From positions 19,194 to 83,193 of the forward strand of contig JAWLCQ010000004.1 in NCBI GenBank assembly GCA_041687095.1: a DNA stretch of 64,000 nt, given 5' to 3'. Both the position numbers and the translations under genes were made by a program. The notes beneath the pieces were generated by a model that was not told the DNA's origin, made no database searches, and saw only the letters and a program-made list of their open reading frames with translations. The DNA comes from Phycisphaerae bacterium (lineage in GTDB: Bacteria > Planctomycetota > Phycisphaerae > SM23-33). Numbering within the stretch: the first letter of the stretch is position 1; each line of letters starts with the position of its first letter. This document shows positions 29,901 through 63,697 of the stretch, piece after piece.

Positions 29901-32900
29901 TGAGGATCAGCTTGTATGTCCCCAGGATGCTGAAGCTGTTGAGGCTGTCGATCGTCACCCACCCGACGGTCTCGTCCTGCGTGTCCAGCGTAACGCTGGC
30001 CCCGCTGGAGAAGACGGCGACGTCATTGGGCCCGGGCACCTCGCCCAGGTCCCAGTTGGTGTAGGTGGACCAACTCCCCGTCCCGCCGATCCAGTGGAAG
30101 GTGCGGGTGTCGTTGTCGGCGAGGGTGATCGTGCCCGTCTCCGGGTACGCCAGGTCGTAGTTCGCCGTATCCAGAAGGGTCAGCGTCAGGTACTCGTCGA
30201 TCTCGGGAGCGGCGTCGTCGATGGGGGTGACGTCGATGTAAACATAGCGCTCGTTGGCGGGGATGGTCACGCTGCCGGTGAGGGACTCGTAGTAGTCCCC
30301 GCTGGCGGCCGTGCCGCTGAGGGAGTAGCTCACCGTCAGCGGACTGCCCGTGGGCCCGGTGCGGTAGACCATGAACCGCCCGCCGTCCTCATTCTCCTCC
30401 GAGGCGTCGGGGTCGATGGTGATCAGGCTGACCTGCTGCGTGGCGGGCTGCTCGTAGGAGGTGAACTCCCACGCGCCCCCGACCTGGGTGAAGTTGACCT
30501 TGGCCCCCCCGGGCAGGTTCACGGTGATCGTGCCCGACCCGTAGGTGACGCTGTAGTCCGCCCCCGCCACCGGCAGGTCTCCGGTGAGGTCGTTGAGCGG
30601 GAGCATCACGGTGACCAGCGGGGTGTTGGCGTTGGCGGTGTAGTCACCGCGGACCTTGTACCACTGCACGCCCATGCGGTCGAAGTACCACGAGCCCTCG
30701 AAGTCCGTCGGCCCCGTGGCCGTCAGCGACGCCGCCGGGCCGAACGTGCGGAGCAGCATCCGCCCGTTGTTGCCCTGGATGACGGCCCCCAGGCCCCCAT
30801 CAATGGTCGAGGCCGCGAAGCCCGCCTGGTACTGGGCCGTCACCACCCCGCTGCCCGAAGCGACGATGTCGTCCAGCAGGATGAGCGCCTCGCCCTGCAG
30901 CTCCTGCTGCGTCATGACGAACACCCGGTGCGCCCGCGTGGCCGCCCCGTTGGCGTAGGCGTCCGTGGTGTCCATCACGAACCCACGGTATCCGGCGGCG
31001 GCGTTCTCGAAGCTGCTGAGGATCGTCGCCATCGGCGTGTTCGAATCCGTCACGCCATTGCCGTCGATCAACGGGATGCTGTGGACCGTCTGGTCCCCGT
31101 CGCTGGCGTTGCCCTGGAAGTAGCCCGGGTCGATGAGGTAGGCCTCCTCGTTCGCCTGGACGACGAAGCTGCCTTTGTCGTACTGCTTGTGGTGCCCGTA
31201 GCGGTGCCCCCCGATCGCCGAGACCACCATGTCCGGGTAGAAGTCCGACCCGTCGGTGCGGATCGTGACGCCCTGCGTATTGTTGTCCAGCACGACCTTC
31301 GTGGCGATGGTGGGGAAGCTCGACGGGCTCGCCGTCGCGTCCCGCCACAGGAACCCCCAGGCGACGTACGGGTCGCGGACGTCGAGGTTGTTGCGGTAGT
31401 AGCTGGAGATGAGCCCGTCGGCGTCGGCGGCGATGCGGGAGGCCATCTCGTCCGCCAGCCAGCGGTACAGCCCGTCGTTGAAGCGGGCGCCGAAGTCCGC
31501 GCAGATGGTGAAGCCCGTCAGGAACGGCTGGGTGTCCCCGAAGCTCTGCATCCCGGTGACCTTGTCGCCCGCGAGCAGGAACTCGACGTAGTCCCGCATG
31601 TTCGACAGCGACGGCGCCGTCAGCAGCCCCTGGTGCGAGCCCGTCGCCTGCTCCAGCGCCTTGGCGAAGTACAGGTAGTACCCGAACCCGTAGTCCCAGT
31701 ACAGCGAGCCCTCCGGGCACCCCCCGTCGACCATGAACCCCTTGTCGATGTAACTGTTCTCCAGCAGGTCGACCGCCCAGTTGATGGCGTAGACGCTCTC
31801 GGTGTACATGGTGTGCTTCATCACCAGGCCGGACATGCCCGCCACCCCGGCGGCGACGACGACGGTGTTGGACCCGGGGTTCCCGTACCACCCCCACGTG
31901 CCCTCGTCGTCGGTGAGCAGGTCGGAGAAGTAGCCCTCGAACCACCCCCGCTCCGTCGCCGTCAACTCGGCGGCGAGGGCGTTGTAGGCCTCGGCCATCG
32001 CGGTCACCCGGCCCACCGCCACCTGCCCCTGCTGGCTCACCCAGCCGATGGTGTTGGCGACGTAGTCGACCTCCCGCATCAGCCGGTCACGGTACTCCGG
32101 CTTGCCCGTCAGCAGATACCCATAGAGGCTCGTCACGATGACCGAGCCGTTGGAGTCGAAGCTGTTGATCAGGCCGGTGGAGAGGTGCTTCTCCGCGCGG
32201 TCGAGGATGGGCTGAACGTAGTCGGCGAAGGCGGGGTTGGCCGCCTTGGCCTTCAGCGCCGCCACCCCCGCGTCGCCGAACCACGGGCTCACGTACGTCG
32301 CGTGATACCCGAACTTCGGGGACCCGCCGAACGTGTTGCCGCCCGTGGCCGCCGCGATCGTCGCCAGCCCCACCGTCGTCCCCCCCGCCGGAACCGTGAA
32401 CGTCGCCTGCCGGGACGACACGATCGTCACGTTCGTCGCCGCCGAACCGTTGACGGAGAACGTCGTCGTCGCCTCGAACCCCGCCCCGAAGACGGTGATC
32501 GTCACCCCCCCGTTCAGATGCGCGTTATCCGGCGTGCAGCTTGACAGGTAACGCCCGTAGGCGACGCCACCGTCCAGGACCGCCGACAGCTCGTTGGGGT
32601 TCACCACCTCCAGCGAGTAGATGCCGTCCGCCGCCGCCATCGCCGGGAGCGTCACCGTGAGCTGCGTGGAACTGTTGAACGTCACGCCCGCCATCGCCGT
32701 CCCGCCGATGCGGACCTCGCAGCCGTTGACGAAGTTCGTCCCCGTCACCGTGATCTGCGAGCCGCTCCCCAGCACCGCCGGGCCGCTGTAGCCCGCAACC
32801 GTCGGCCGCAGGCCTACCGTCAGCAGGACGGTCACCTTCATCGTCTGCGACCCGTCCGTGACGGTGATCGTGCCCGTGTAGCTGCCGTTGGTGAGGCTGG

Positions 32901-35430
32901 CGGCGTCGCAGGTGAGCGTGAGCCCCTGCGGGGCGGACTGGTCGGAAAGGCTGCCGCTCGACGGGGCCACGCCGAGCCAGGCCGCGTCGTCGGTGATGCT
33001 CCAGCCCAGGTTCGCCAGCCCGGCGTTCCACAGCGGGATCTCGACCTGCGTGGACGCCCCGGCGGCGACATCGGCGACGACGACCCGCCGCGGCAACTCC
33101 ACCGTCGCCCCCGGGGCGGTGCCCGAAATGCTCGTCTGGAAGCCCGTCCAACTGTTGCCCTGCATGAACAGGCTGCCCGCCCCCGACCCGAAGTTGATCC
33201 CCACCGAGGCGGCGTACTCGCTGTCGCCCTGCTCCAGGGTGTTGTTGTACAGGATGATGTTGTCGGAGGCCGCGCTGCTGAACAGGAACCCCTTGTGGGC
33301 GCTGAGCACCTGGTTGGAGTCGTAGACGTTCAGCACGGCCTTGCCGGTCTTGAACGCGACGTCGGCGACCTTGTTGATGACGACGTTGTCGCGGAAGACG
33401 TTCAGGAGCTGCGTCTCGCCGTGCGCCATCGTCCCCCCCGACACCGAGGTCGCCCAGCGGACGTAGTCGAAGGTGTTGTTGGCGACGTACTGGCTGTAGT
33501 TGACGGCCGACTCGCTCGTCCCGCCCCCCGGGGTCCACACCACGCCCGAACGCATCTCGTGGAAGTAGTTGTTGTCGACGACGAAGTTGATCCCGCCGTA
33601 GAACGTGTTCACGCCCGAGTTGGCGACGTGAGCGGTCTGGTCGACCGCGAGCTGCGTGCCGTCAAAGTAGTTGTCGTAGACCGCGATCTTGTCGAACGTC
33701 CGAACCAGCAGCACCGTGCTGGTGGTGTCGGGGATGACGTTCCAGGGCTGGGTGACGGTGGTCGTGTACGTCCCCCCGTCGTACGACGCCACCTGCCGCA
33801 CCTGCCCCAACCCCTTCCCGCCCGTGATGACCACCCGCATGTTCGTCGCGGGGGGCGTCGCACCGGGGTTGAACGTGATGGTGTTGCTCGTGGCCCCGGT
33901 GATCGTCCCGTTGTAGAACGGGTAGCTGCCCTCCCACAGGAGCTGCTCCCCGGAGTTCTGATCCCCCCCGCCGGTGCGGACCACGAAGTCCACCGTCTCG
34001 TTGCCCCCGAAGTACTGCTGCGTCTGGCTGCCCCAATGGCAGTAGCCCACCCACGCGCGCCCCTCGCCCCAGCCGCTGGGGTGCGACGGGTTGGACATGT
34101 CGTAGTGCTGGAACGTGTTGTTCGTCACGCTCAACTGCGCGCACGCCCACGCCTCGATCAGGTCCTCGGTGTCGTAGCGGGCGTAGAAGTCACAGTTGTC
34201 GATGAACGTCTGCGATCCGAACCCGCTGACGTGCTTGCCGATCAGCGTGCTGTTGGTCAGGTAGATGTGGTTGGACCCGGTGAAGCTGATGATGCTGTAG
34301 TCCAGCCACCCCGTCTCGTGGACGCTGATGCGGTCCATCCAGACGTAGGCGCCGTTGGCGGCGATGCCCTGCTGGCCCTCGAAGGCGAGGTTCTCGATCC
34401 GCGAGTTGCCCCCGAAGGTGACCTTCGTCGCCTTCCACATCGTCGTCCCCGCCCCGTCCCCGTACGTCCGCACGCCCGAGGGGACGGTGAAGCTCGTCGG
34501 GGACAGGTACGTCCCCGCCGGGAAGTACAGTTGGTCGCCCGCCTGGCAGGCGCTGACGGCCGCCTGGATGAAGCTGCTGTCGTCCGTCACCCCGTCGCCC
34601 GTGGCCCCGTAGCTCATGACGTTGCGGATCGTGCCCGTCCAGGTGACCGGATCGCTCACGGTCAGGGCCGAGGGGCTCTTGCTCCACCCGTAGTCCCCGC
34701 CGTGCCCGTTATGCACCCAGACCTCGTACGTCCCGTTGGAGAGCCCCGCGGGGACGGTGTAGTCGACCTTGTAGGGGTTGGCGGCCGTCACCTCGGCCCA
34801 CGTGCCGCTCCCGACGGAGGGCTTGAGATAGACCCAGGCGGTGTTGGTGCCCTCGTAGGTGGCGTCATGGTAGCTGAGATTACGCCCGAAGACGCTGACG
34901 GTGTCGCCCCGGGTCCCGGCGTTGGAGCCCCACCACGCCTCGGTCTGATTGATGGCGACCGGGTAGCCCACGCCGCTGCTGTTCTGGGCCCACAGCAGGA
35001 GCATGGAGTACTCGCCCGCGTCCTCGGCGAGGCGGACGGCGGCTTGGATGTTATCGGTATCCAGGCGGAGCGTCTCGACGTCGACGAGTTCCCCGTCGAG
35101 CATGTCGCTCTGCCGCCAAGCGTAGAAACGCGTGTCCTTCCCGAAGTCGCTCCCCGTGTAGCCCGAGAGCTGCCACCCCGTCAACGCCATCACGTCCCCG
35201 CCCTCGCCCGTGCGGGTCCACTCCCCGATCTGCGGGGCCCCGGAGACCGGGGTCTGCGTGTTGACGGGCGGCAGGAACACGTCCATGCCCGCCTGCAGGG
35301 CCGGGTTGTCCGCCGGGGCAACCACCGTCTGCAGCCCCGGATACCATGCCGTCAACAGCAGCCTGGGCTCGAGGCTCTCAAGGAATAGCGGGGTCGACTG
35401 AAGCTGAGAGTAATCGGGTCGGGGGGACAT
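20938..35430 (-). CDS. giant secreted multidomain protein (~4830 aa): beta-helix lyase-like, IPT/TIG, heparinase-II/III-like, tandem Calx-beta arrays, Gly-rich modules, C-terminal metzincin-type zinc motif
   Basis: Single uninterrupted ORF (track 20938..35526). Start assigned to the internal ATG at 35430, which has AAAGGAG 7 nt upstream. Motifs are listed in the findings. The overlapping plus-strand 3832-aa ORF is Arg/Gly-rich antisense noise. Confidence 0.85.
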   Translation of the reverse strand: MSPRPDYSQLQSTPLFLESLEPRLLLTAWYPGLQTVVAPADNPALQAGMDVFLPPVNTQTPVSGAPQIGEWTRTGEGGDVMALTGWQLSGYTGSDFGKDTRFYAWRQSDMLDGELVDVETLRLDTDNIQAAVRLAEDAGEYSMLLLWAQNSSGVGYPVAINQTEAWWGSNAGTRGDTVSVFGRNLSYHDATYEGTNTAWVYLKPSVGSGTWAEVTAANPYKVDYTVPAGLSNGTYEVWVHNGHGGDYGWSKSPSALTVSDPVTWTGTIRNVMSYGATGDGVTDDSSFIQAAVSACQAGDQLYFPAGTYLSPTSFTVPSGVRTYGDGAGTTMWKATKVTFGGNSRIENLAFEGQQGIAANGAYVWMDRISVHETGWLDYSIISFTGSNHIYLTNSTLIGKHVSGFGSQTFIDNCDFYARYDTEDLIEAWACAQLSVTNNTFQHYDMSNPSHPSGWGEGRAWVGYCHWGSQTQQYFGGNETVDFVVRTGGGDQNSGEQLLWEGSYPFYNGTITGATSNTITFNPGATPPATNMRVVITGGKGLGQVRQVASYDGGTYTTTVTQPWNVIPDTTSTVLLVRTFDKIAVYDNYFDGTQLAVDQTAHVANSGVNTFYGGINFVVDNNYFHEMRSGVVWTPGGGTSESAVNYSQYVANNTFDYVRWATSVSGGTMAHGETQLLNVFRDNVVINKVADVAFKTGKAVLNVYDSNQVLSAHKGFLFSSAASDNIILYNNTLEQGDSEYAASVGINFGSGAGSLFMQGNSWTGFQTSISGTAPGATVELPRRVVVADVAAGASTQVEIPLWNAGLANLGWSITDDAAWLGVAPSSGSLSDQSAPQGLTLTCDAASLTNGSYTGTITVTDGSQTMKVTVLLTVGLRPTVAGYSGPAVLGSGSQITVTGTNFVNGCEVRIGGTAMAGVTFNSSTQLTVTLPAMAAADGIYSLEVVNPNELSAVLDGGVAYGRYLSSCTPDNAHLNGGVTITVFGAGFEATTTFSVNGSAATNVTIVSSRQATFTVPAGGTTVGLATIAAATGGNTFGGSPKFGYHATYVSPWFGDAGVAALKAKAANPAFADYVQPILDRAEKHLSTGLINSFDSNGSVIVTSLYGYLLTGKPEYRDRLMREVDYVANTIGWVSQQGQVAVGRVTAMAEAYNALAAELTATERGWFEGYFSDLLTDDEGTWGWYGNPGSNTVVVAAGVAGMSGLVMKHTMYTESVYAINWAVDLLENSYIDKGFMVDGGCPEGSLYWDYGFGYYLYFAKALEQATGSHQGLLTAPSLSNMRDYVEFLLAGDKVTGMQSFGDTQPFLTGFTICADFGARFNDGLYRWLADEMASRIAADADGLISSYYRNNLDVRDPYVAWGFLWRDATASPSSFPTIATKVVLDNNTQGVTIRTDGSDFYPDMVVSAIGGHRYGHHKQYDKGSFVVQANEEAYLIDPGYFQGNASDGDQTVHSIPLIDGNGVTDSNTPMATILSSFENAAAGYRGFVMDTTDAYANGAATRAHRVFVMTQQELQGEALILLDDIVASGSGVVTAQYQAGFAASTIDGGLGAVIQGNNGRMLLRTFGPAASLTATGPTDFEGSWYFDRMGVQWYKVRGDYTANANTPLVTVMLPLNDLTGDLPVAGADYSVTYGSGTITVNLPGGAKVNFTQVGGAWEFTSYEQPATQQVSLITIDPDASEENEDGGRFMVYRTGPTGSPLTVSYSLSGTAASGDYYESLTGSVTIPANERYVYIDVTPIDDAAPEIDEYLTLTLLDTANYDLAYPETGTITLADNDTRTFHWIGGTGSWSTYTNWDLGEVPGPNDVAVFSSGASVTLDTQDETVGWVTIDSLNSFSILGTYKLILSNGTLNVNARSGKTHTITCPVSGTASGVNFFGGGTYAFGNTLSDFTGPISISGGTFLYSTAGADTIFGNSANDLTLGGGVLVSIGTNGGDFNPASGRTVTIGEGGATFYANSDDIVFDDADQLQGSGLVTLRAMTYGTQMHLSAAQPNFSGGFLVDHVSGQRRVTELNATVAGALGTGPVTVRGIGGLVSYTWGAQTAVGGVTAGITAEDHGTINLVGTWSSTPDRFTVSEFGQIRGSSAQLGSVYRVSSFSGSPTTPEAILSTGAVVCHTTVSTSSIQNLGTAHDLLFGLGNNFNDPAFTLNIGNGSPWMGIARQTSAFSTSTSEVTRRLQQGTINVDGSNGFTEMVFLSAGNAYGSEERLLLGLDTYCPTFVLTGGNKVVGRVLDGQGRGRFVLDSSAPAYSNAISEWIVGDGTRTGEMMVTYTGGLGGIPVTVQSGSKLTASVTDALNANVTVNTGGTLVGPVTVASGLRLSGGGAVSGSVTVASGGTIAPGSATGAMSITGDLTLENGATYECSLGDTVSDSISVSGVVTLPYGGSTWTLKLVDDGGFVTEDHVLFTFSGTAPDLSGVVLDYGTTGWSGCRLEIQGASVVLTGTWTTVTLEATDTSAHEQGTDTGSFTVTRTGTSGDLTVHYTVGGTAGSGDYTPTLTGSVVIPDGQSSVVVTVTPVDDQEVEGPETLILTLAKDDAYARGAVISGTVTIGDNDGIPTVTLSATDSTAAEAGLATGAFTVTRSFTGGDLTVYYTIGGSATNGSDYVTLTGSVVIPSGQNSAVITVTPIDDDEIEGSESVSVQLASDAAYQIGSPYSGVVNITSDDKPVVSITATDASGSEAGNGTMSFRISRSGPGDIASGDLVVMYGVSGNASAGDYSETLGGTITIPDGELYADIVVTPVNDGAREGHEQLKLTLTTSPTYTLGAPNSATGRILDDDFSAATVTWTNGGGDGLASNPNNWSGALDHGVDVLLDGTSTADLVWDVTYNIDDWTQTSAYTGTVTIGTTYSTFSSTFTTFYVSGNVDLQGGKWTHIANTKGYSESGRDEYRLNAMVYGNLTVASGVSIDVTSKGYVEGKPNYNGGGTHGGRSSYPATPYDDPFMPLYHGTGGGSVSATNFSGGGSVFLVVNGTSTINGSILANVDAPTATYSRAAAGGSVYLETGSLSGSGAIETAGGNSLGGSNTNNGGGGRLAVILTGSASTFANFTGTLSAKAGTGGGFSAKAAAGSVYKQAGSEGPRQGELVIDFANRYGDTVDDYAYQFLAEDMSKVQVTMRQQGLWKLMGNTVIGGLDMASGTNLLLGGYTLTINSAPEEAVFSGTIYLDAAKTQTYDPQVGSSQIVFTRVLRPTVTIEATDPIATEAGPTTGTFTVTRTGPTSGDLVVRYTVGGTASSGDYSETLSGTITIPDGQASATITITPVDDSAIEPDETLVLTLSADAAYNVGSPAGGTVTIVSDDLDTVTLTATDASATEAGPTTGTFTVTRTATQGDLTVNYTIAGTATNTSDYATLSGSVVIPDGQTSATITVTPVDDSDIEADETVLLTLASGGYSIGSPASDTVTIVSDDVPTVTITATDATATEAGQTTGTFTVTRSGSGPALTSGDLTVNYTIAGTATNTTDYSTLSGSVTIPDGQANAVITITPVDDSDIEADETVLLTLASGGYSIGSPASDTVTIVSDDVPTVAITATDATATEAGQTTGTFTVTRSGSGPALTSGDLTVNYTIAGTATNTSDYATLSGSVVIPDGQTSATITVTPVDDSDIEADETVVLTLASGGYSIGSPASDTVTIVSDDVPSVSIVATDSSASETGPDTGTFTVTRSGSGPALTSGDLTVNYTIGGTATNTTDYATLSGSVVIPDGQASATITVTPVDDAETEADETVLLTVASGSGYTVGSPDHATVDIADNDGAVEVNLTATDAFASETGPDDGVFTITRTGTSGDLTVNYTVSGLADSGDYSQTLTGSVVIPNGQGSTTITITPVNDSVKETDEPLTLTLASGTGYTIGANSEATVVIEDNDVPAGTAWWVGQGDDTLASNPYNWAGDALANGVDIALDATSTKDLYWDVTYTVSDWAQASGYTGTVTIPTTYSAYSATFTVMSITGDLEISGGTWTQELNGKGYSEANPDQYRLRVDVGGNLTIGSGGAIDVTSKGYRPGYPNYNGGASHGGLGGTGSSWTGGPVYDSIFAPTLHGMGGGSTSDWQHEGGGSVYLTVAGSSTINGSILANVNAPLQTYTRAGAGGSVYLSTASISGSGSVAAKGGDSTGGSNTGDGGGGRIAVVLTGTGNTFSGYTGSFNAQPGTGGASSAHASAGTIYLQTGDQASGEGQVIIDSFDRNGDTVDDQATVLTSEDLSGSELLLRQKGIVKLTGNQEIGALDMAGGTQLALNGYTLTINQAKSQATLNGTIYLDAPRTQTYDPQQGHAQVVWTVSDTPTVTLTATDASAAEESSETGQFTVTRDQTSGDLTVYYSIGGTATNTSDYATLTGSVVIADGNSSAVITVTPVDDADHEGDETVVLTLSTDAAYTIGTPSSDTVTIADDDPAGPKLLEGVVTTVSNTGWTTVNLANDYNSMVVVCTVVHNGTLPPIAARVQNASGNSFQVRVDRADGQTGDVTGITVHYMVVEEGVYTVANDGVKMEAVKYTSTVTDRKSSWNGQSRTYANSYTTPVVLGQVMSYNDTDWSVFWCRGTSSSTPPTSTTLRTGKHVGEDSDTTRSDETIGYIVIESGSGTINGVDYVAALGADTVQGISDTPPYSYTISGFATVSSATVSQNAMDGADGGWAMLYGPAPVTTTDIDLAVNEDMIGDSERNHTTEQLGYMVFGQAAMQVATAPTTAEPTGVTLSDAPSDDLVQTAIADWEAALNADLSQLLAGVRFVITDLGGSLLAYEDRGVIYLDDDAAGYGWFIDETPLDNAEFTTETAGGLSATDTSPAAGAIDLLTVLRHELGHVLGVAHEDPGSADVMSETLEAGTRKLFDTADEEVVDLLALI
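24100..25500 (-). repeat. tandem ~342-bp (114-aa) coding repeats, near-identical at nucleotide level, each encoding one Calx-beta domain
   Basis: Antisense mini-ORFs at 24464, 24806 and 25148 (spacing exactly 342 bp) give almost identical peptides. The sense units read PTVTITATDATATEAGQTTGTFTVTRSGSGPALTSGDLTVNYTIAGTATNT(S/T)DY(A/S)TLSGSV(V/T)IPDGQ...DETV(L/V)LTLASGGYSIGSPASDTVTIVSDDV. Confidence 0.7.
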
Positions 35431-36030
35431 GGCGTGCTCCTTTGCCCAGGTTGGTGGGCGCGGGGAGGGGTCCCTCCGCGCACACGATAACTGCAGTTGC
35501 ATTCCCTTGGCTCGCCACACCGACAAGGGACCACGCGGACAGACCGCGCGACACCCGCCTCCGCCGGGAGGGGATACGGACGAGACTGTCCCAACCCGAA
35601 CCCGGCCGACGAACCAACCAATTGTGCTCCCGCGCCCGCTTCAGGGACGAGAGCGCCAGACAGGACAAGATCGAAGCGACAGCAAACGAACGGTGTCGGG
35701 CAGGCAATGCGCCCGACGACATGCCAGCACCCTTGAGGATAACAGCACCCCGGATAGCGTCAAGCGAGCAGCAACGAGATAATGTGCGAACGTAGAATAC
35801 TCGCGGCTGAATGTGCAGGAATAGCACCCCCGCGCACCCGGCTGCGCTTCGCTCCGCCCCCTGCATGCCCTACACACTCCGCCCGAAAAAGGGGAACAGG
35901 CTCCGCGGCTGTCTGGCGGTGCCTGCCCCCCGGCGGTTCGCCTGCATGGGCTCGAAAAGCGGGACAGGCACCTGCGCGGCGAACAGCAGCCGCCCTGGCC
36001 CCAGTGCCCATTCTCAAAACCGCTGCTCCG

Positions 36031-37368
36031 CTACCGCTGGTAGATCGGGACGATCTGGTACGCCGGGGTCAGCGCCAGGATCGACAGGGCGGTGGTGTAG
36101 GCGGGGCCGCTCCAGTGGTCGCTGTCGATGACCCCGCTCCGCCGCGGCGGATGGACCCAGGCGCCCTGGTCGTTCTGGTTGGCGAGGAAGATCTCGGCGA
36201 GCTGCGAGTAGAACCGCCGCCAGTGCTCCCCCCCGAGTTGGAACGTGCCCTGCGAGGCGTGGTACATCGCGTAGAAGTACCGCTCCGCCCCCGGGACCGT
36301 GCTGCCGTAGGAGGCGGGGTTGTTCGCCAGGATCCAGTCCCCCGCCGCCTTCGCCACCGGCAGCCCGTGCCTCCCCCCCATCGCCAGCGCCAGCATCCCC
36401 GCCCCCGCCATCGCCCGGTTCGGCCGCTCGGGGGTCTGCGGGGCGTAGATGAACGTCCCGTACGACGGGACGAAGCACCGCCCCACGAACCCCGCCGAAT
36501 CGTCCACGCTCTTGACGGGCACGTCGAACCCGGCGTTCTCGGCCGAGCGGAGGAAGCACATCATCCAGCAGGTGACGGACAGGTCCGAGTCGCACTCCCC
36601 GAAGCTGCCCGGAACGATGTACCGCCACGCCCCGCGGTCCAGAACGCGGCGCTTGGGCTGCTGGTACTGCAGGTCGATGGAGTACTTCAGCGCCCGCTCG
36701 ACGGCCGGTCGGATCCGCAGCGCCCGCTCGCGGTCCGTCATCCCGTAGACCTCGGCGAGGAAGATCCCGGCGATTCCGTGGCTGTACGTCGAGTGGGTGT
36801 AGCGGAAGCGGGAGAGCAGCCCGTCGGACTGCTGGGAGTCCAGGACGTAGTCGATGGCGCGGTTGAGGTGCTCCCCGTAGGGCCCCTGCCCCGGGACGTG
36901 CCCCGCCGCCAGCAGCGCCATCCCGCACAGCGCGGTCACGCCCGGCTGGGACTTGGAGTTGCCCGACTGGAACTGCCCATCCCGAAGCTGCTGCGTGACG
37001 AGGAACGCCAGCGCCCGCTCGACGGACTGGTCCACCCGCCGCCACGTGAGGGCGTCGACGGCGTCCTGGGGGGCGGACTGCGGGGGCTCCTGCGCGAGGG
37101 CGGACGAGGCGACAGACAGCAGGAAGAGGAGGGCAACCGCCACCACCCCAGGTGCGCGAGGCGCGAGCGGGGAGGCAGTGGGGCAATTTCCAATTTCCAA
37201 TTTCCAATTTCCAATTGGTTTGAAGACTGTTCCACAAACCGATTTCCACCGCAGAGAACGCGAAGATCGCAAAGGAGACTGGGCGTAGACAAAGGGAGTC
37301 CCACTCCCCCTCTGCGGCCGTTGCGACCTTTGCGGTGGGTTCTGAAGCAGTCTCTTGGCGGGCTTCAC
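36031..37368 (-). CDS. secreted prenyltransferase/squalene-oxidase-repeat (terpenoid cyclase-like alpha/alpha toroid) protein; start codon uncertain
   Basis: Repeated QxxDGxF/W-type motifs (QLRDGQFQSG, SQQSDGLLS, NQNDQGAWV). Hydrophobic signal-like segment VVAVALLFLLSVASSALAQ. The track start at 37368 is a GTG. A (CAATTTC)n repeat lies between that start and the signal peptide. Confidence 0.6.
   Translation of the reverse strand: MKPAKRLLQNPPQRSQRPQRGSGTPFVYAQSPLRSSRSLRWKSVCGTVFKPIGNWKLEIGNCPTASPLAPRAPGVVAVALLFLLSVASSALAQEPPQSAPQDAVDALTWRRVDQSVERALAFLVTQQLRDGQFQSGNSKSQPGVTALCGMALLAAGHVPGQGPYGEHLNRAIDYVLDSQQSDGLLSRFRYTHSTYSHGIAGIFLAEVYGMTDRERALRIRPAVERALKYSIDLQYQQPKRRVLDRGAWRYIVPGSFGECDSDLSVTCWMMCFLRSAENAGFDVPVKSVDDSAGFVGRCFVPSYGTFIYAPQTPERPNRAMAGAGMLALAMGGRHGLPVAKAAGDWILANNPASYGSTVPGAERYFYAMYHASQGTFQLGGEHWRRFYSQLAEIFLANQNDQGAWVHPPRRSGVIDSDHWSGPAYTTALSILALTPAYQIVPIYQR
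37184..37216. repeat. heptanucleotide microsatellite (CAATTTC)x4 plus a partial unit
   Basis: Perfect tandem heptamers, AT-rich in a roughly 70% GC background, in the 5' region of the prenyltransferase-like gene. Confidence 0.9.
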
Positions 37369-37371
37369 GGA

Positions 37372-40300
37372 TCACTCTCCTCTCGCGTCGGGGTCGGTCT
37401 CGACGGTGTCGGCGAGGCGGCGGTAGTAGTCATCGATGGCGCGGCGGTACTGTTCGGGGGGATCGGCGGAACGGCCCTGTTTGAGCCCGTCGCGGAGGCG
37501 GGAGACAAAGAGGTTCCACTTCTTTCGCCGCGCCTCGACGAGGGTCTTCTCCCAGGTCTGCAGCTCGACGCGTTTCCAGGCGTCGAGCTTGTTGCGGATG
37601 GACTGGGCAAGGTTCTGGGCGTTCTGCCCGGTCTGCTGAGCGAGGGCGGAGGCGGCGGCCATGGCGGACCCGGCCCCGCTGCCCGCGCCCGATCCCCCGC
37701 CCATCCCCCCGCCCTCTCCCGGGTTGTTCGGCATCCAGTCCTGCATGACCTGGATGTTCAGCCGCACGCCCGCCAGGCCCAGCAGTTCGGCCGCGTCGCG
37801 CTCGTGCTGGAGCATCCGCAGGATGGCCTCCAGGTCCGGGGCGATGGGCGGCTGCGCCCCGCGCATCCGTTCCTCCAGGAGCGTCAGCAGGTCGTCGAAG
37901 ATCTGCTCCGCCAGGGCGAAGGCGTCGACGGTGGATTGCTGGATGCGGTGGGCGTCGTCGAGCTTGCCCTCGTGCAGGGCAGAGGCGGTCTCGGAGTGCA
38001 GCTTGGCGATGTCCTCCTTGACGAGGCGTTGGAGGTCGTCGGCCTTGGTGGGGATGGGGGGGTCGGCGTCGGCGAGGTTATAGGCGACGTCGAGGAGCTT
38101 CCAGGCGAGGACGGCGGTGTCCTCCTCGAGGAGGATCAATTGGGCGGTGGCGATGGCGGCGAAGTCCTCGGTCTCGAGGGCCTGGAGGCGGGCGACGAGG
38201 GCTTCCTGCTCGCGGAGCATGCGGAGGGTCTCGCGGACGCGGCGGTCGGCGTAGATGGCGACCTCTCCGTCGTTGGGATCGGAGAAGGCGACGGTGTCGG
38301 CGGCGGTCCCCAGGAGGCGCATCTCCTCCAGGAGCTTCTCCGACAGCTCCAGGGCCTTGTTGGGGTCCGCGGGGAGCGTGGCGGCGAGTTCGCCGGCGTG
38401 CTGGGCGACGCTCTTGGCGAGGGCGGCCATGGCGTCGGTGGGCTCGATGGCGAGCGTCGACTGCCGGGGTCGCCAGACCACCGCGTTGTCGTACAACTGG
38501 CTCGCCGCCTGGGCGAGCTGCGCCTGCTCGGTGGCGATGTCCCGGGCGTGCTTGTCGAGGAGGGGCTTGCGTTTCTCGGGCGTGTCGGCCGACTGCCAGG
38601 CGGCGGTGTCGGCGAGCAGGGCCTGCTGGCGGCGGGCGAGGAGCGTGAGCTGGTCGCGGAGGGTGTCGGCGGACTGGCGCTGCATCGCCATGAACCGCCG
38701 CATGAGTTCCGGGTCCTCCGCGAGCAGCCGGGCGAGTTCCTCCATGAGTCTCCGCAGGTCCTCGTAGTACTTCTGGACGGCCTTGGCGAACTCGTCGTCG
38801 ACCTCGACCATCTTCCCGGTCCGCGGGTTGATGCGGTTCCGCTGCGCCTGGAGGAAGGCGTTCATGTCCTCGACGAGGATGCGGTGCATCTTCGCGATGT
38901 GTTCGAGATCGTCGGCGCGCTTCTCCTCGTTGGCGATCCGCTCATAGGCCTTGGTGAGTTCGACGAGTTTGGAGCGGGCGCGGCGGATGTGGAACAGCGC
39001 CTGCGTGAGGGGCTCGGCCATCTCGGCGGGGCTCTTGGTGAGCTTGCCCGCCGCGTCGAGGTTCTCGGCGGCGGGGACGACGTCGGAGATCCCGATGTCC
39101 TCCAGTTGCAGGGAGATCATGGCGTAGGGCGTGTTGGCCGCCTTGTGCTTGAGTTCCTCGATGAGCTTGGCGGCGGATTGGAGGCGCTTTCGGCCGCCCT
39201 TGAGCAGCGTGCCCTGCTCGGCGGTCCACTTGGGGAGGGACGGGACCGCGGTGTGCAGGGCGGTGGTCGCCTCCTCGGCGGCGGCGAGTTCGGTATCGAG
39301 GGCCTTGAGGTAGCGGGCGATGTCCAGGCGGAGCTTCTCGCGCTTCTGGGCGTCGTTGTGCTGGGCCCACTCGTCGATCTGGATGCGGTGCTTGGGCGAC
39401 TCCGCGCGCGGGGGCTTCCCCCCGGGCAGCGATCGCATCTGCATGTCGTTGGGCGGGGGCGAGTTCTCCGGGGCCTGGGGGTCCTGGGGATCCCGCTCGC
39501 CCCCCGAGGTCTGCGAATCCCGCGAGTTCGGATCGGTGCTGCTGGAGTTCGGGTCCTGCTCCCCGCCCGGGGGGCAACTGCTCCCGCCCGAGTTGGGATC
39601 GGAGGGACTGCTCGATTGCGATCCGCTGCTGCCCGAGTTGGGGTCGGACGGGCTGCTCGACTGCCCCCCGCTGCTGGAGTTCGGGTCCTGCGGGTTGCCC
39701 GACTGGCTGTTACCCGAGTTCGGGTCGGAAGGACTGCCGGACTGCCCGCTACGGGAGTTGGGGTCCGACGGGCTGCCCGATTGACCACTGCGCGAGTTCG
39801 GGTCAGAGGGACTGCCCGATTGGCCGCTACGGGAGTTGGGGTCCTGCGGGTTCCCGGGCTGCCCCCCCTGGGAGTTCGCGTCCTGCGGATCGCCCGACGC
39901 GTTCGATTGGCCGGAAGGGGACAGCTGCGGGTTCCCGTTCTGCCCCGACTGGGAGCCCTGATTCCCGACTGCGTTGGGGTCCTGCGGACCGCCCTGGTTG
40001 GGGTTCTGCTGCGTCAGGTCGGTGGGGTCCTGCGGGTCACCCTGCGTGCCCCCGCGCGTGTCGCCCTGGGTGGACTGGACGGCGTCGCGGGCGCGGAGGA
40101 CGTACTCCACGCGGTCCCCATGCTTCACCTGCAGCGCCTGCAGGTCCAGGTTGACCGCCCCCGCCATCTGCAGGGGCGGGGGCAGATTGGGGTCGGGGTC
40201 GAGGGACTTGAGGAAGGTCCGGGGCTGCTCTCCCTCGCGGGAGATGGTGACGGCGAGTTCGAGCCCGAGGATCCCGAAGTCGTCCTGCGCCTCGTAATGG

Positions 40301-41556
40301 ACGGCGATGGTATCGTCGGGGGGGGCGAGGATGTCGGAGTCGGGGCTGCGGATCCAGACGCGGGGTTCGCGGTCGGGGTAGACGGTGATGCGGCAGACGG
40401 GGGGGGCGAGGTTCTTGAGCCCCCCCTGCCCCACCGCCTCGACGCGGAACTGCAGCGTCTCGCGGAGTTCAGACGTATGGCTGAACCACCCGTCGCCCGC
40501 GGGGGTCAGATCGATGGTCCCGGCGGACCCGGTGTCGATCTGGATCCGCTCCACCGCCGTCGCCGCCCGGCAGCGCAGTTCCATCGTGCTGCCCTCCAGG
40601 GCGCGGAGCGTGCGGGGGAGCGTGTCGTACTCCTGCGCGGGGATCTGGCTGTAGTCGGGGGCGGTGACGCGGAGGCGGACCTCGCCCAGCTCGGGGCGGG
40701 GCACGACCGTCACCCGGTGCCAGGGCGTCTGCCCGTCGCCCGCGCGGAAGCGGTACTCGAAGGACTCGCTGACGGCGCGGAAGGCGTAGGAGAAGTCCGC
40801 CCCCCCGCTCCCCTGGCGGGGCAGGTCGATGGCGTGCTCCTCCCCGTCGGCGGTGCGGAGCATGAGGATCGCCGTCTCGCGGGGGGCCCCGGAGAGGGCG
40901 GCCTCCAGGCGGAGCGGTTCGTGGCGGGCGACGGCGGGCGAGCCCGTCAGCGAGCGGATCTGCGTGAGGGTGATGTCCGCGGAGGGATGCAGGAAGCGTT
41001 GCAGCAGCACCCGCGCGCGGTGCGAGCCGGCCACGCTGACCGCCAGGATCAGCGCAGGGACCGCGAGGCACAGGGCGGCGCGGCGGAGCGGGCGGGTGCT
41101 CACCACGCGGTTGGGATGCACGAGGCCGCGGAGGCGGTCCGCCTCCTGCGAGACGCGCTGCAGCAGCGCGGGGTCCCCGCGGAACGCGGGGGCGTCGCGG
41201 CTGGCGGCGAGTTCGGTGACGGTGGACCAGCGCTCCTCGAGTTGGGGAACGGCGAGGTCGATCTCGAGCGCCACCTGCGCCATCCGCCACCGCAGCAGCC
41301 CCACGCGGACGAGCCCGGCGAGGGCGGCGAGGGCGGAGGCGGCGAGGGCGGCGTACGTGAGCCCCGCCCGCCAGGCGGGACTGAAGAGCGTCAGCAGCCC
41401 GTCGAGGCACATGGCCAGGAGCATGGCCGCCAGCAGCGCCCCCGCCCCCCACAGGACCGCGCGGACGAGCGCCACCCCCAGCTCCCGCCGCCGCACTGCG
41501 CGGACGGTGGACTGGAGGCTGGAGGGCACGGAAATCGGTTGGGCACTCTGCGTCAT
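37372..41556 (-). CDS. large membrane-anchored protein (~1394 aa) with N-terminal TM helices, a central Ser/Gly/Pro/Asp/Asn/Gln low-complexity repeat region and a long C-terminal alpha-helical/coiled-coil region; member of the MoxR-BatA operon
   Basis: ORF 37372..41679. Start at MTQSAQPISV (ATG 41556). Hydrophobic helices LGVALVRAVLWGAGALLAAMLLAMCL and LCLAVPALILAVSVAG. Immediately downstream of the VWA gene on the same strand. Confidence 0.7.
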   Translation of the reverse strand: MTQSAQPISVPSSLQSTVRAVRRRELGVALVRAVLWGAGALLAAMLLAMCLDGLLTLFSPAWRAGLTYAALAASALAALAGLVRVGLLRWRMAQVALEIDLAVPQLEERWSTVTELAASRDAPAFRGDPALLQRVSQEADRLRGLVHPNRVVSTRPLRRAALCLAVPALILAVSVAGSHRARVLLQRFLHPSADITLTQIRSLTGSPAVARHEPLRLEAALSGAPRETAILMLRTADGEEHAIDLPRQGSGGADFSYAFRAVSESFEYRFRAGDGQTPWHRVTVVPRPELGEVRLRVTAPDYSQIPAQEYDTLPRTLRALEGSTMELRCRAATAVERIQIDTGSAGTIDLTPAGDGWFSHTSELRETLQFRVEAVGQGGLKNLAPPVCRITVYPDREPRVWIRSPDSDILAPPDDTIAVHYEAQDDFGILGLELAVTISREGEQPRTFLKSLDPDPNLPPPLQMAGAVNLDLQALQVKHGDRVEYVLRARDAVQSTQGDTRGGTQGDPQDPTDLTQQNPNQGGPQDPNAVGNQGSQSGQNGNPQLSPSGQSNASGDPQDANSQGGQPGNPQDPNSRSGQSGSPSDPNSRSGQSGSPSDPNSRSGQSGSPSDPNSGNSQSGNPQDPNSSSGGQSSSPSDPNSGSSGSQSSSPSDPNSGGSSCPPGGEQDPNSSSTDPNSRDSQTSGGERDPQDPQAPENSPPPNDMQMRSLPGGKPPRAESPKHRIQIDEWAQHNDAQKREKLRLDIARYLKALDTELAAAEEATTALHTAVPSLPKWTAEQGTLLKGGRKRLQSAAKLIEELKHKAANTPYAMISLQLEDIGISDVVPAAENLDAAGKLTKSPAEMAEPLTQALFHIRRARSKLVELTKAYERIANEEKRADDLEHIAKMHRILVEDMNAFLQAQRNRINPRTGKMVEVDDEFAKAVQKYYEDLRRLMEELARLLAEDPELMRRFMAMQRQSADTLRDQLTLLARRQQALLADTAAWQSADTPEKRKPLLDKHARDIATEQAQLAQAASQLYDNAVVWRPRQSTLAIEPTDAMAALAKSVAQHAGELAATLPADPNKALELSEKLLEEMRLLGTAADTVAFSDPNDGEVAIYADRRVRETLRMLREQEALVARLQALETEDFAAIATAQLILLEEDTAVLAWKLLDVAYNLADADPPIPTKADDLQRLVKEDIAKLHSETASALHEGKLDDAHRIQQSTVDAFALAEQIFDDLLTLLEERMRGAQPPIAPDLEAILRMLQHERDAAELLGLAGVRLNIQVMQDWMPNNPGEGGGMGGGSGAGSGAGSAMAAASALAQQTGQNAQNLAQSIRNKLDAWKRVELQTWEKTLVEARRKKWNLFVSRLRDGLKQGRSADPPEQYRRAIDDYYRRLADTVETDPDARGE
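39500..39900 (-). repeat. coding low-complexity repeat region (13-aa SDPNSRSGQSGSP unit x3 plus degenerate copies; roughly 39-bp periodicity)
   Basis: The protein reads ...PQDPNSRSGQSGSPSDPNSRSGQSGSPSDPNSRSGQSGSPSDPNSGNSQSGNPQDPNSSSGGQSSSPSDPNS.... Codon usage differs between copies, so the DNA repeats are imperfect. Confidence 0.6.
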
Positions 41557-41589
41557 GGTTCCACCCCTTCTCTCACGCCATCCCCGCTG

Positions 41590-41720
41590 ATCGTGGCATG
41601 GGCGTCTCGCCCATGTGTCCCACGGGCATCCTGCCCGTGGGGCGGGGACCCGAGCAGGGGCGGGACGCCCCTGCGACACACGGGCAAGATGCCCGTGCCA
41701 CGGAAAGCCATGTGTTCCTT
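41590..41720. repeat. REP-like array of GC-rich hairpins between the VWA gene and the 1394-aa gene
   Basis: Palindromes CATGGGCG-tctc-GCCCATG; CCCACGGGCA-tcc-TGCCCGTGGG; CACGGGCA-aga-TGCCCGTG. Shares cacgggcaagatgccc with the 17470 locus. Confidence 0.4.
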
Positions 41721-47743: not shown

Positions 47744-47766
47744 TGGCCCGTGCCTCTCGCGGATAC

Positions 47767-47822
47767 TGGTTCATTGGTTGACTGGTTGACTGGTTGATTG
47801 GTTGATTGGTTGATCGGTTGAC
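47767..47822. repeat. octanucleotide tandem repeat (TGGTTGAY)x7 in the moxR-DUF58 intergenic region
   Basis: tggttcat tggttgac tggttgac tggttgat tggttgat tggttgat cggttgac, followed by an inverted partial copy (cagtcaaccagttcacc) about 60 bp away. It lies 25-80 bp upstream of the DUF58 ATG. Confidence 0.9.
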
Positions 47823-47902
47823 TGGGCAAGGAACCGATTGCTCCATTGCCTCACCGTGTACTCGCCGGTGAGTCCATCACCCAGTCAACCAGTTCACCAT
47901 TC

Positions 47903-48934: not shown

Positions 48935-49228
48935 CCTTCGCTCCTTTCGCCGCACCGCCCGGTGCGACTGCCCGTCACCCTGATCCGGAAATGCCCAATG
49001 CTCCGTCAGACGCTCGAACCGGCCAAAGGTTCCGCACGGCACGGCCGCCTCGACATTCTGCCAGAATTTTGGCACCCTGTCCCGCCCCCGTCAAGCGTAA
49101 ACGCGAAATCCCTGCAGAATGCGGGGCGCACCCCGGCGGGAATCCCGAAGGAAAAGAGTGCATTTTCCGGTCCCCCCGGTACAATCCCCGCCTTCCGCAC
49201 CGCCGCCCGATGGAGTGAGGACGAAACG

Positions 49229-60432: not shown

Positions 60433-60484
60433 GCCTTCCTTCCGTCATCCCAAGCGTACCGGGAACCCGTTTCACCGCGGAGAG

Positions 60485-60640
60485 CGCAGGGAGAGGAAAG
60501 GCACTAGGGACTAGGGACTAGGGACTAGGGACTAGGGACTAGGGAAGAAGAAGCACCGAAGCATGACGTTGCCTCTTCCGCTTCTTCTGCCTATTCCCTA
60601 GTGCCTATTCCCTAGTGCCTCTCCTCTGCGATCTCTGCGG
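60485..60640. repeat. ~155-bp imperfect palindrome whose left arm carries (ACTAGGG)x8 (60504-60559) and whose right arm carries (GCCTATTCCCTAGT)x2
   Basis: Left arm gagaggaaaggc(actaggg)8aagaagaag; right arm cttcttctgcctattccctagtgcctattccctagtgcctctcctc (reverse complement gaggagaggcactagggaataggcactagggaataggcagaagaag). It lies between the sulfatase stop and the SSS transporter start. Confidence 0.85.
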
Positions 60641-62177: not shown

Positions 62178-62491
62178 GGGGGGAATTTCGGATTTGGGAA
62201 TTCGGATTTCGGATTTGCGTGGGTGTTGATCGGGGTCCCCTCCGCGGAAGCGGGTCTTTCACTCGCTCCAGGATTGAGCGGGGATGAACGCAGATGAACG
62301 CGGATAGAGGGAAGGCGGGGATACAGGGGATGAGAGTGACAATCAACTCCCATCCCTTGCATCCCCGCTCTCTCTTCCTCATCTGGTTCATCTGCGTTCA
62401 TCCCCGCCAAGTCTTCATCCGCGGAGGGAAGCCTGGACTGCCACCCACGCAAATCCGAATTCCGAAATCCCAAATCCGAAATCCCGAATCC
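62178..62491. mobile_element. ~315-bp non-coding long imperfect palindrome (MITE/BIME-like) with ~45-bp terminal inverted repeats built from degenerate ATTTCGG/ATTTGGG/AATTCGG heptamers
   Basis: Left end gggaatttcggatttgggaattcggatttcggatttgcgtgggtg. Right end cacccacgcaaatccgaattccgaaatcccaaatccgaaatcccgaatccc (its reverse complement matches the left end). Inner perfect inverted repeat gcggggatgaacgcagatgaac / gttcatctgcgttcatccccgc. No plausible ORF inside. Confidence 0.4.
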
Positions 62492-63697
62492 CTACATCCG
62501 GTCCAGCGTTCCCAGCGTCGGGTGCTGGTGGGGGAAAAGCACCTCGGTGAGGGCCCAGCCGTCGCCCGTGGGGCGCATGGAATTGGCCTCGAGGACCTCG
62601 TGCGGGTCGTCGGTGCCCAGGACCAGTTGGGCCACCCCGTGCCCCGCCGCCAGCGTGTGCTTCGTGCGCACCGGGTCGGTCACGCACACCGTCCCCCCGT
62701 CGATCCGCAGGCCCACCCTCTCACGCTCGTCGCTCACCAGCAGCGTCCCCGACCAGTCGTCCAGGTGCGACGCCTTCACGCGGCGGGACAGCTCGGGGGC
62801 GACGTGCTCCAGCGTCTGGCGGAGGTTGACCACGTGCATCATCGCCCCCCCGCTGCGGACGTAGTTGACCTTCGCCGTGCAGTTCCCGCGGCGGAGGCGG
62901 CGGCACAGGTCGCTCGCGTAGTGCAGGTCGCTGAAGGTCACCTCGCCCCAGCCGTTGTGCCTCGCCAGGCGATGCACCACGCGGAGCACCTGCTCCACGT
63001 CGCCCGCGTGATCGACGATCTCGCTGCCCTTGTTCACCACCCAGCCCGCCACCTTGCCCCCCGCGTCCGTCCACAGCAGGCCCTCCAGGCTGTGGTTGGG
63101 GAAGGGCACGCCGCGGAACGTCGGCCGGACGGCCGTGCCCGTGCGGACGCGGTTCTCGCGGTTGTACAGGGCCGCCAGGTCCTCGCGGTGCTTGACGGCG
63201 AACTTGCGGGTCCCCCGCTCGGGGGCCTCCGAGGGCAGGTGCGGGGTGGCGACGGTGTAGGTGGTCGCGTTCCACGCGCGGACGTACCCGAAGCGGTGGT
63301 AGAAGTCGTGGATGCCGTACAGCAGCGTCGCGTCGTAGCCCAGCGGGGCCATCGCCTCCATGCCCGCCTTCGCCGTCTCGGCCATCAGCCCGCGCTGGCG
63401 GTAGTCCCCGTGCGTCGCCACCGCCCCAATGCCCACCACGCGGATGGCCGCCGCCCCCACGCGCATGGCGAGGTCCCACGCGCCCCAGTGCGTCACGATC
63501 CGCCCGTCGAGGATCCCGATCCGCGACGCCTTCCAGTCGTAGTTCGCCCCCCCGAGGATGTACCCGCCCCGGCAGCGGTCGCGGAATGGATAGTACCCGT
63601 TGTGGGAGAAGACCTTGCACACCAGGTCGATCATCTCCTCGGCGTGCGCGTCGGGGTCCGGTGCGATCAGTTGCATCTGCTGCTCATGCTTCGCCAT
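62492..63697 (-). CDS. GNAT-family N-acetyltransferase, Eis-like (GNAT plus C-terminal SCP2-like region)
   Basis: Start at MAKHEQQMQ (ATG 63697) within track ORF 62492..63790. Acetyl-CoA-binding block HGDYRQRGLMAETAKAGMEA (R-x-x-G-x-A). Length and overall architecture resemble Eis. Confidence 0.65.
   Translation of the reverse strand: MAKHEQQMQLIAPDPDAHAEEMIDLVCKVFSHNGYYPFRDRCRGGYILGGANYDWKASRIGILDGRIVTHWGAWDLAMRVGAAAIRVVGIGAVATHGDYRQRGLMAETAKAGMEAMAPLGYDATLLYGIHDFYHRFGYVRAWNATTYTVATPHLPSEAPERGTRKFAVKHREDLAALYNRENRVRTGTAVRPTFRGVPFPNHSLEGLLWTDAGGKVAGWVVNKGSEIVDHAGDVEQVLRVVHRLARHNGWGEVTFSDLHYASDLCRRLRRGNCTAKVNYVRSGGAMMHVVNLRQTLEHVAPELSRRVKASHLDDWSGTLLVSDERERVGLRIDGGTVCVTDPVRTKHTLAAGHGVAQLVLGTDDPHEVLEANSMRPTGDGWALTEVLFPHQHPTLGTLDRM

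Follow-up and report, generated by a model that had tools for sequence, protein, structure and literature searches.

A perfect tandem array of a 7-nt unit occupies positions 37184-37216 of the 64,000-nt stretch of contig JAWLCQ010000004.1 analysed here (hereafter the window), in the 225-nt spacer that separates a 1435-aa open reading frame (ORF) from a prenyltransferase-like gene, the last of a MoxR-DUF58-BatA cluster. The array, its flanking genes and the cluster genes are all on the minus strand. We interpret the array, with a probability of about 0.7, as an intergenic heptamer repeat resembling the STRR (short tandemly repeated repetitive) sequences of cyanobacteria, generated by slippage and transcribed as an A/U-rich leader. 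Taken by itself the structural classification, a non-coding STRR-like heptamer array within an operon spacer rich in repeats and hairpins, appears highly probable. An earlier reading of the window from its letters and ORF translations (the sequence-only reading) had favoured a different explanation, in which the array is translated and gain or loss of units switches the gene on and off by frameshift.

The array and the translation start of the downstream gene

Tandem Repeats Finder (TRF) describes the array as 4.7 copies of the consensus CAATTTC with a period of 7, 100% matches and a score of 66, and a second, independent scan for perfect repeats returned the identical 33 nt. In the sense of the flanking genes the array reads (GGAAATT)n, or AATTGGAAATTGGAAATTGGAAATTGGAAATTG, CAATTTC being its plus-strand form. 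The unit and its complement (GGAAATT/AATTTCC) are free of stop codons in all six frames, and within the window a GGAAATT/CAATTTC array is found at one place only. When the 64-kb window was shuffled 200 times with dinucleotide composition preserved, no shuffle contained a perfect period-7 run of 21 nt or more; the longest run was 20 nt, compared with the 33 nt observed. The sequence-only reading had counted four CAATTTC units and a partial fifth, had called the array AT-rich in a genome of roughly 70% GC, and had placed it 155 nt beyond the preceding stop codon and about 35 nt ahead of a signal-peptide-coding segment. These descriptions are borne out, with a GC content of 27% in the array and 69.3% in the window, and a distance of 37 nt to the signal-peptide-like segment.

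Three candidate start codons share the open frame that leads into the prenyltransferase-like gene: GTG 37368, which the sequence-only reading took from the ORF track, TTG 37200, which lies inside the array, and GTG 37146. NCBI protein P0001 (371 aa, 100% identical, and the sole identical protein in the database) begins with MVAVALLFLL and hence at GTG 37146. With a codon log-odds model trained on 17 confident genes of the window, every 10-codon segment between 37374 and 37150 scored -4 to -19 per 10 codons and had a GC content at third codon positions (GC3) of 0.2-0.8; from 37149 onward the scores are positive and GC3 is 0.9-1.0, and the other two frames are negative throughout. In an alignment of 120 homologues, a conserved Trp (LTWRRVD) is preceded by a median of 48 residues (5-95% range 28-72) and by 89 at most. 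Counting from GTG 37368, TTG 37200 and GTG 37146 gives 108, 52 and 34 residues, respectively. Taken together, the NCBI model, the codon statistics and the homologue N-termini place the array outside the translated frame, 37 nt upstream of the start, and we consider it very probable that translation begins at GTG 37146. The 37 nt between the array and this codon form a GC-rich leader with a poor Shine-Dalgarno match.

If translation instead began at GTG 37368, the array would be read in frame as IGNWKLEIGN, and any change in unit number would shift the frame and act as an ON/OFF contingency switch. The geometry behind this proposal holds: the frame from GTG 37368 runs open through the array, as ...PIGNWKLEIGNCP..., and on into the gene. 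The 7-nt length of the unit is not divisible by 3, and arrays of the GGAAATT unit are translated in frame in other genomes, which means that heptamer arrays are not inherently non-coding. Nonetheless, all 74 additional codons fall in the region of negative log-odds and reduced GC3, the extension aligns with no homologue, and its 108 residues before the Trp exceed the largest number seen among the 120 homologues. The extension is composed of palindromic repeat modules and is left out of the NCBI model, and an open frame of 74 codons is unremarkable at this GC content. A start at GTG 37368 is therefore very improbable, and the frameshift switch that depends on it scarcely credible: lying outside the translated frame, the array cannot turn the gene off in this way. 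The track start was likely mis-set, and its correction from 37368 to 37146 removes one candidate phase-variation switch. The sequence-only reading had also offered a fallback, in which the gene starts at the GTG just before the signal peptide and the array, lying in the promoter or 5′ leader, tunes expression; the positional half of that proposal stands.

Use of TTG 37200 would turn the array into a ribosome-binding region together with the first codons of the gene, and would provide an Arg-containing n-region (MEIGNCPTASPLAPRAPGVVAV...). The 52 residues that it places before the Trp are near the homologue median, GGA motifs lie 8-12 nt upstream of it, and the protein starting at GTG 37146, besides its poor Shine-Dalgarno match, has no charged n-region. 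On the other hand, the 18 extra codons score -8.6 to -12.7 per 10 codons; 13 of them lie outside the array and, by direct count, have a GC3 of about 0.69, whereas that of the gene exceeds 0.9. In the NCBI model a different start is used, and several homologues likewise begin without a charged n-region. Initiation at the TTG appears unlikely, and even then slippage in the array would leave the gene in frame, because TTG recurs every 7 nt and three units cover all three frames. The position of the in-frame TTG is set by the 3′ end of the array, and such a codon persists as long as there are at least 3 units.

On the side of the upstream gene, a degenerate 7-nt register continues the array. It contains a small hairpin, GGTTTG-12 nt-CAAACC (37240-37217), the stem of which is present in the predicted fold. 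By direct reading, taking out 28 nt (CGGTTTGTGGAACAGTCTTCAAACCAAT) beside the array yields a perfect array again, and this stretch may be either a nested insertion or a set of decayed units.

Spacer structure and sister arrays

Between stop 37372 and start 37146, the 225-nt spacer consists of a long hairpin, the degenerate register stretch, the perfect array and the leader (Table 1). The arms of the long hairpin are built from CGCAGAG-like modules with a period of about 9 nt, its base is CCACCGCA...TGCGGTGG, and 2 of 200 shuffles were equally stable. Only this core is significant; the fold of the whole 251-nt spacer segment is unremarkable (z = -1.23). The array abuts the hairpin but is not part of an arm; it is mostly unpaired in the predicted folds, and no tract complementary to it was found nearby. 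At gathering thresholds Rfam identified nothing in the spacer and only a tRNA (5839-5910) in the window, and the unique flank GTTTGTGGAACAGTCTTCAAACC had no match in a scan of the metagenome collection.

Three further spacers in the window, all between co-directional genes, contain sister arrays. A rough gene map gives about 17 spacers of at least 100 nt, of which 4 hold short-period arrays and 2 others hold palindromes of the CACGGGCA(A/G)GATGCCCGTG type. Perfect arrays of at least 3 copies have periods of 7 and 8 only, with none of 5, 6 or 9. The arrays at 62181 and 62442 make up inverted repeat I1 (44 nt, 93% complementary). Since arrays are found ahead of a transporter gene, a sulfatase gene, DUF58 and the prenyltransferase-like gene, they appear to be a property of this genome and not of any one gene.

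Table 1. Features described in the text. Positions refer to the window, except for loci in other genomes, which carry a locus identifier.
Feature	Position	Strand	Basis
Best-supported start codon, GTG	37144..37146	minus	P0001; coding potential on at 37149
Signal-peptide-like N-terminus MVAVALLFLLSVASSALA, then QEPP	37093..37146	minus	translation, judged by eye
In-frame TTG within array, minority alternative start giving MEIGNCPTASPLAPRAPGVVAV...	37198..37200	minus	direct reading
Perfect heptamer array, 4.7 units	37184..37216	minus	TRF, perfect-repeat scan, 0/200 shuffles
Degenerate 7-nt register continuing array, GGAAATC GGTTTGT GGAACAG TCTTCAA ACC...	37217..37247	minus	direct reading
Long imperfect hairpin, most of spacer	37223..37354	minus	RNA fold -57.1 kcal/mol, z = -3.05
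TGA stop of 1435-aa ORF, same frame as downstream gene	37372..37374	minus	
About 7.6 imperfect 8-nt units (ACTGGTTG on plus strand) with upstream inverted partial copy, MoxR-DUF58 spacer	47765..47825	minus	fold z = -3.83
(ACTAGGG) x 6.1, perfect, one hairpin arm, sulfatase-SSF transporter spacer	60503..60545	minus	inverted repeat I10; fold z = -6.95
Inverted partner of ACTAGGG array, TGCCTATTCCCTAG x 2.4, containing CCCTAGT	60588..60620	minus	
Imperfect heptamers of GGAATTT/CGGATTT types, arm of ~330-nt hairpin, GNAT-sulfatase spacer	62181..62225	minus	fold z = -16.3
Inverted partner heptamer array, AAATCCG/AAATCCC types	62442..62500	minus	
MoxR AAA_3	47903-49075	minus	Pfam
DUF58	46829-47743	minus	Pfam
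BatA/VWA	44562-47105	minus	Pfam
Large 945-aa ORF without Pfam domains	41728-44565	minus	
Large 1435-aa ORF without Pfam domains	37372-41679	minus	
Prenyltransferase / squalene-oxidase-repeat-like gene, 371 aa, last of MoxR-DUF58-BatA cluster	36031..37146	minus	
In-gene arrays, example loci	L120:27-2852, L061:3527-6397, L049:5601-7724, L100:882-3275		
In-gene arrays, further loci	L118:117-3026, L101:5223-7358, L077:1331-4312, L033:2310-3635		

Other repeats in these spacers were noted in passing. In essence, the spacer at 62111-62491 is a single hairpin of about 330 nt that heptamer arrays close. Copies of a palindromic repeat, CCACGGGCA(A/G)GATGCCCGTGG (GACACATGGxCGAGACG), are present at 17480-17517, 41603-41640 and 41685-41705, in two unrelated spacers, one of which separates the 945-aa and 1435-aa genes. 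The repeat corresponds to inverted repeat I7 (38 nt, 92% complementary), and sequences of this type are a second intergenic repeat family of this genome. Exact matches to CACCGCRGAGA at 37247-37257, 60473-60483 and 60632-60642 lie at the bases of long hairpins in two spacers and precede the CGCAGAG-like units with their period of about 9 nt. As a significant dispersed repeat this motif was rejected, with 6 sites counted against 5.0 expected when up to one mismatch is allowed; the three exact copies are suggestive at best.

Proposed origin and role in the light of known heptamer repeats

Slipped-strand mispairing, which is favoured for 7-nt units in bacteria, probably both produced the array and keeps it homogeneous. 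As part of the operon transcript, or of one that starts from a promoter within the spacer, the array would form a 33-nt A/U-rich, structure-poor tract between the -57 kcal/mol hairpin and the GTG with its weak Shine-Dalgarno match. Such a tract might at most serve as a ribosome landing site, as a spacer, or as a binding tract for ribosomal protein S1 or CsrA, and the hairpin ahead of it may separate off the upstream cistron or add to its stability. A unit gained or lost would change the length of the leader by 7 nt, with at most a modest tuning of expression.

Several points weigh against this interpretation. The leader role of the array is one that we infer. The 28-nt interruption adjoining the array could indicate that the locus owes its shape to insertion and not to slippage alone. 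All three sister arrays have an inverted partner, which this one lacks, and simple scans of 36900-37600 for sigma-70 promoters and intrinsic terminators gave no sites. Finally, a fixed orientation of the array to the next gene, which was suggested in 5-6 high-GC genomes, found no support over the 43 listed intergenic arrays of the same unit in other genomes (15 versus 12), and this lack of preference argues against a conserved strand-specific RNA function.

Heptamer simple sequence repeats (SSRs) reportedly form the over-represented class of long SSRs in many bacteria and are attributed to polymerase slippage (Mrazek 2007, via PMC4679880 and PMC4692102). Cyanobacterial STRR sequences consist of 7-bp repeats, located in spacers within operons (hupS-hupL is one example) and often able to fold as hairpins; the functions proposed for them are transcript stability or translational coupling (PMC2670836). 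The arrays described here resemble them in their tandem 7-bp units, several unit families, intergenic positions in operon spacers and associated hairpins, a pattern seen in four spacers of the window. They differ in that the host is planctomycete-like and not a heterocystous cyanobacterium, in the sequences of their units, and in that the array at 37184-37216 lies beside a hairpin and not within it.

Arrays of the heptamer TAACTGA, in 2-6 copies at many loci, occur in marine Beggiatoaceae, cyanobacteria and Bacteroidetes (MacGregor 2015, PMC4679880). They are mostly situated just upstream of starts that have no canonical ribosome-binding site, although some are in ORFs; their phylogenetic distribution is scattered, and S1, Csp or CsrA has been proposed to bind them (PMC4679880). 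The present array is comparable in that short arrays of one heptamer occur at many loci in scattered lineages, some of them in ORFs. The start that it precedes has a weak Shine-Dalgarno match. In contrast to TAACTGA, which supplies stop codons in the forward sense, GGAAATT/AATTTCC supplies none in six frames; its gap to the start is 37 nt instead of a few nt, and the unit array is found once in the 64-kb window. Intergenic heptamer SSRs are also known from Xanthomonas (GGGAATC), a high-GC gammaproteobacterium, and the cyanobacterium Nostoc (GGGGA(T/C)T); part of them are arranged in inverted pairs from which stem-loops could form (Rehm et al. 2015, PMC4692102). These vary in length and sequence between related species and show no link to any class of gene (PMC4692102). 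Intergenic heptamers and inverted pairs are common to both cases, and the 62181/62442 arrays of the window (GGGAATT/CGGATTT) are close to these repeats in sequence; the latter, however, are G-rich and form G-quadruplexes, whereas GGAAATT has no G-runs.

The one heptamer rheostat that has been studied mechanistically is the (ATCTTTC)n repeat of Haemophilus influenzae hmw1A/hmw2A, which is transcribed in a structured leader and modulates expression through its unit number, with no frameshift. It has at least 11 units in nature, and the pairing of 10 of these with a G-rich arm creates a substrate for RNase III (PMC12721329). By analogy, the array could be a phase-variable rheostat in the promoter or 5′ untranslated region, with unit number setting the level of a secreted protein. 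It is a heptamer SSR located between the upstream gene and the start codon, beside a long hairpin and ahead of a gene for a secreted protein; in hmw, more repeats mean proportionally less expression (PMC12721329), and the intergenic arrays of Xanthomonas differ in length between related species (PMC4692102). The match breaks down in the details, as the array has 4.7 units, is predicted to be mostly unpaired and has no complementary arm, and its context is not that of a pathogen. Moreover, arrays occupy several unrelated spacers of this genome, which is planctomycete-like and of a free-living type, and this points to a genome-wide property and not to a gene-specific device. We regard a rheostat of this kind as unlikely.

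Classical intragenic contingency loci, exemplified by the tetranucleotides of Haemophilus lic and the CTCTT repeats of Neisseria opa, carry long repeats inside the translated frame. The array at 37184-37216 shares with them a unit that is not a multiple of three and a location close to the 5′ end of a gene whose product is exported, but it lies upstream of the start codon, and because it is not translated the frameshift potential of a 7-nt unit is irrelevant. What we find is a 7-nt tandem run in excess of chance, a site in an operon spacer and several dispersed arrays within 64 kb. By these features the array is best classed, host phylum apart, with the STRR-like heptamer SSRs; inverted pairs or hairpin arms, which are frequent in that class, are seen in the three sister spacers, whereas this array only abuts a hairpin. 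It lacks the defining feature of an intragenic contingency locus and does not match hmw. A planctomycete-like genome joins the lineages in which spacers are full of STRR-like heptamer arrays and long hairpins. Should such arrays affect transcript stability or translation, the 7-gene MoxR/Bat cluster, with three repeat-bearing spacers, would offer a compact test case.

Related arrays in other genomes and the gene context

An exact scan for three GGAAATT units, in which each species was represented by one genome, identified at least 120 loci. Among the matches listed, hosts include Patescibacteria, Saccharibacteria, Saprospiraceae, Nitrospira(e), Acidobacteriota, Verrucomicrobiota and Gemmatimonadota, together with a metagenome-assembled genome named 'Planctomyces sp. 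SH-PL62' and a cyanobacterium. In the same set several genomes have 2-4 loci each, the flanks of the arrays are not conserved, and array lengths cluster at 27-33 nt. Period 7 is specifically enriched in the 846 kb around the listed loci, with 58 additional arrays compared with 0, 3, 9 and 1 for periods of 5, 6, 8 and 9. In other high-GC genomes (L042, L109, L065, L088 and L011) a start codon follows the array at a distance of 25-91 nt, in the same sense as in the window, and in L026 an inverted pair of arrays lies between convergent genes. A GTGAACG/CGTTCAC motif is weakly enriched near the listed arrays, at 6 of 124 compared with 1.8% of control positions, and comes from few genomes. The idea that GGAAATT is a favoured unit was rejected: viral contigs contained 11 loci of this unit, and three control heptamers of matched composition had 9, 21 and 44.

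Many of the listed arrays are located in genes, with 81 of 124 spanned by long open frames. These in-gene (AATTTCC)n arrays are about 27-33 nt long and in frame (examples in Table 1). They are flanked on both sides by Pfam domains in DNA polymerase I, topoisomerase I, NAD-dependent DNA ligase (LigA) and leucyl-tRNA synthetase (LeuRS), and lie likewise within a UvrD/AddA-like helicase, TsaD and others, in Patescibacteria and other uncultivated bacteria. Two DNA polymerase I proteins that are 53% identical have the array at one alignment column. In LeuRS of Patescibacteria, the peptide ISNFQFPIS is present in 20 of the 120 closest homologues, in a loop between WYYL.Y and W.PVD, where other homologues have the canonical NKKALVDKKKEKY or an NSKFKIKNSK peptide derived from a different heptamer. 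In-frame heptamer arrays in essential genes could bear on how repeats spread and on how far essential proteins tolerate insertions.

Small hairpins accompany a number of these arrays. An identical GC-rich hairpin of 20-21 nt, CCGCCTGCCGGACGGGCAGG, is nested in the LeuRS arrays of two organisms (L208:1785-1804 and L209:1806-1825) at differing offsets, in frame and encoding PPAGRAG. The exact 20-mer occurs at no fewer than 120 metagenome loci (L210-L329), mostly on low-GC contigs, where chance predicts fewer than 1. Among the matches listed it is inside ORFs in 40 of 80 testable low-GC copies and next to period-7 arrays in 9 of 117 copies (0.5 expected), and it is often in the loop of a larger hairpin. 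More generally, 24 of the 124 listed arrays (19%) have a short perfect hairpin that starts no more than 4 nt away, in most cases right at the 3′ end in the GGAAATT sense, compared with 2.3% of control positions; these hairpins have stems of 6-12 bp, loops of 3-14 nt and variable sequences. From its distribution the nested 20-21-nt hairpin looks like a tiny mobile element. It resembles the very small mobile repeats of Nostoc (SDR families) reported by Elhai and colleagues in 2008, and the palindromic elements within protein-coding genes of Rickettsia reported by Ogata and colleagues in 2000. The likeness lies in the nesting of 21-nt hairpins in heptamer arrays and in the in-frame insertion into essential genes; unlike those elements, the hosts are Patescibacteria and other uncultivated lineages, and no direct link to the array in the window emerged. 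The hairpin is not found in the window, even with 3 mismatches allowed, and for this reason we treat it as a separate lead and not as part of the finding at 37184-37216.

These observations nevertheless raise the question of whether the array in the window is itself a copy or target of selfish mini-DNA, with the spacer assembled by insertions and not by slippage in situ. The narrow size range of the arrays that many lineages carry in frame within variable loops of essential genes would fit such a process, as would the excess of abutting hairpins, the recurrence of one hairpin at two offsets and its enrichment near period-7 arrays. In the window itself, removal of 28 nt beside the array restores a perfect array. 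To set against this, control heptamers are about as frequent in viral contigs, so that no unit-specific propagation is needed, and selection for frame could explain the narrow range of in-gene sizes. The flanks of the arrays are not conserved, and the nested hairpin is absent from the window. We know of no transposase-like agent for such heptamer arrays, and to our knowledge Nostoc and, for another form, Rickettsia are the only hosts from which selfish mini-DNA of this kind has so far been described. Assembly of the spacer by insertion is therefore a rather unlikely account of the array, and the broader notion, that self-propagating heptamer arrays and the GC-rich hairpins nesting in them colonise operon spacers and variable loops of essential genes across phyla, is equally doubtful. 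Slippage in place remains our preferred origin for the array at 37184-37216.

The sequence-only reading had assigned the array to a moxR operon, and the genes agree with this: MoxR, DUF58, BatA/VWA, two large ORFs and then the prenyltransferase-like gene follow one another on one strand. The prenyltransferase-like label derives from the names of homologues (prenyltransferase/squalene-oxidase-repeat or terpene cyclase/mutase family proteins) and a sub-threshold match to Pfam SQHop_cyclase_C, and the best non-self match of the protein has 46% identity. For MoxR the best non-self matches reach 70-74%. The best named relatives of both are Planctomycetaceae, Schlesneria, Symmachiella and Polystyrenella, and on the strength of these matches the host appears to be a deep-branching, planctomycete-like, high-GC bacterium without a close relative in the database. 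In Schlesneria paludicola the MoxR-DUF58-BatA operon and the orthologue of the prenyltransferase-like gene are neighbours in divergent orientation (JH636434.1, 974-7149). Because this orthologue is adjacent but divergent, linkage with the MoxR/Bat cluster seems to be kept across planctomycetes, while the arrangement is not.

Further features of the window were recorded alongside. The 1435-aa ORF and the prenyltransferase-like ORF share one frame, with a single TGA between them and the full 225-nt spacer open, which at this GC content is probably due to chance. A giant ORF of about 4,860 aa (20938-35526) follows the operon immediately downstream on the same strand and carries 342-nt tandem repeats at 24247-25701 (4.3 copies, 85% identity) along with more diverged copies. 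At 48-1847 and 1961-3718 are tandem genes for thiamine pyrophosphate (TPP)-dependent enzymes, acetolactate-synthase-like, in which one 300-nt segment is 99% identical and another 79%; they represent either an artefact of the assembly or a recent tandem duplication in which gene conversion has been partial. An ORF at 11892-15440 fuses a Ser/Thr protein kinase domain to an FGE-sulfatase (sulfatase-modifying factor) domain, and sulfatase genes are present elsewhere in the same window.

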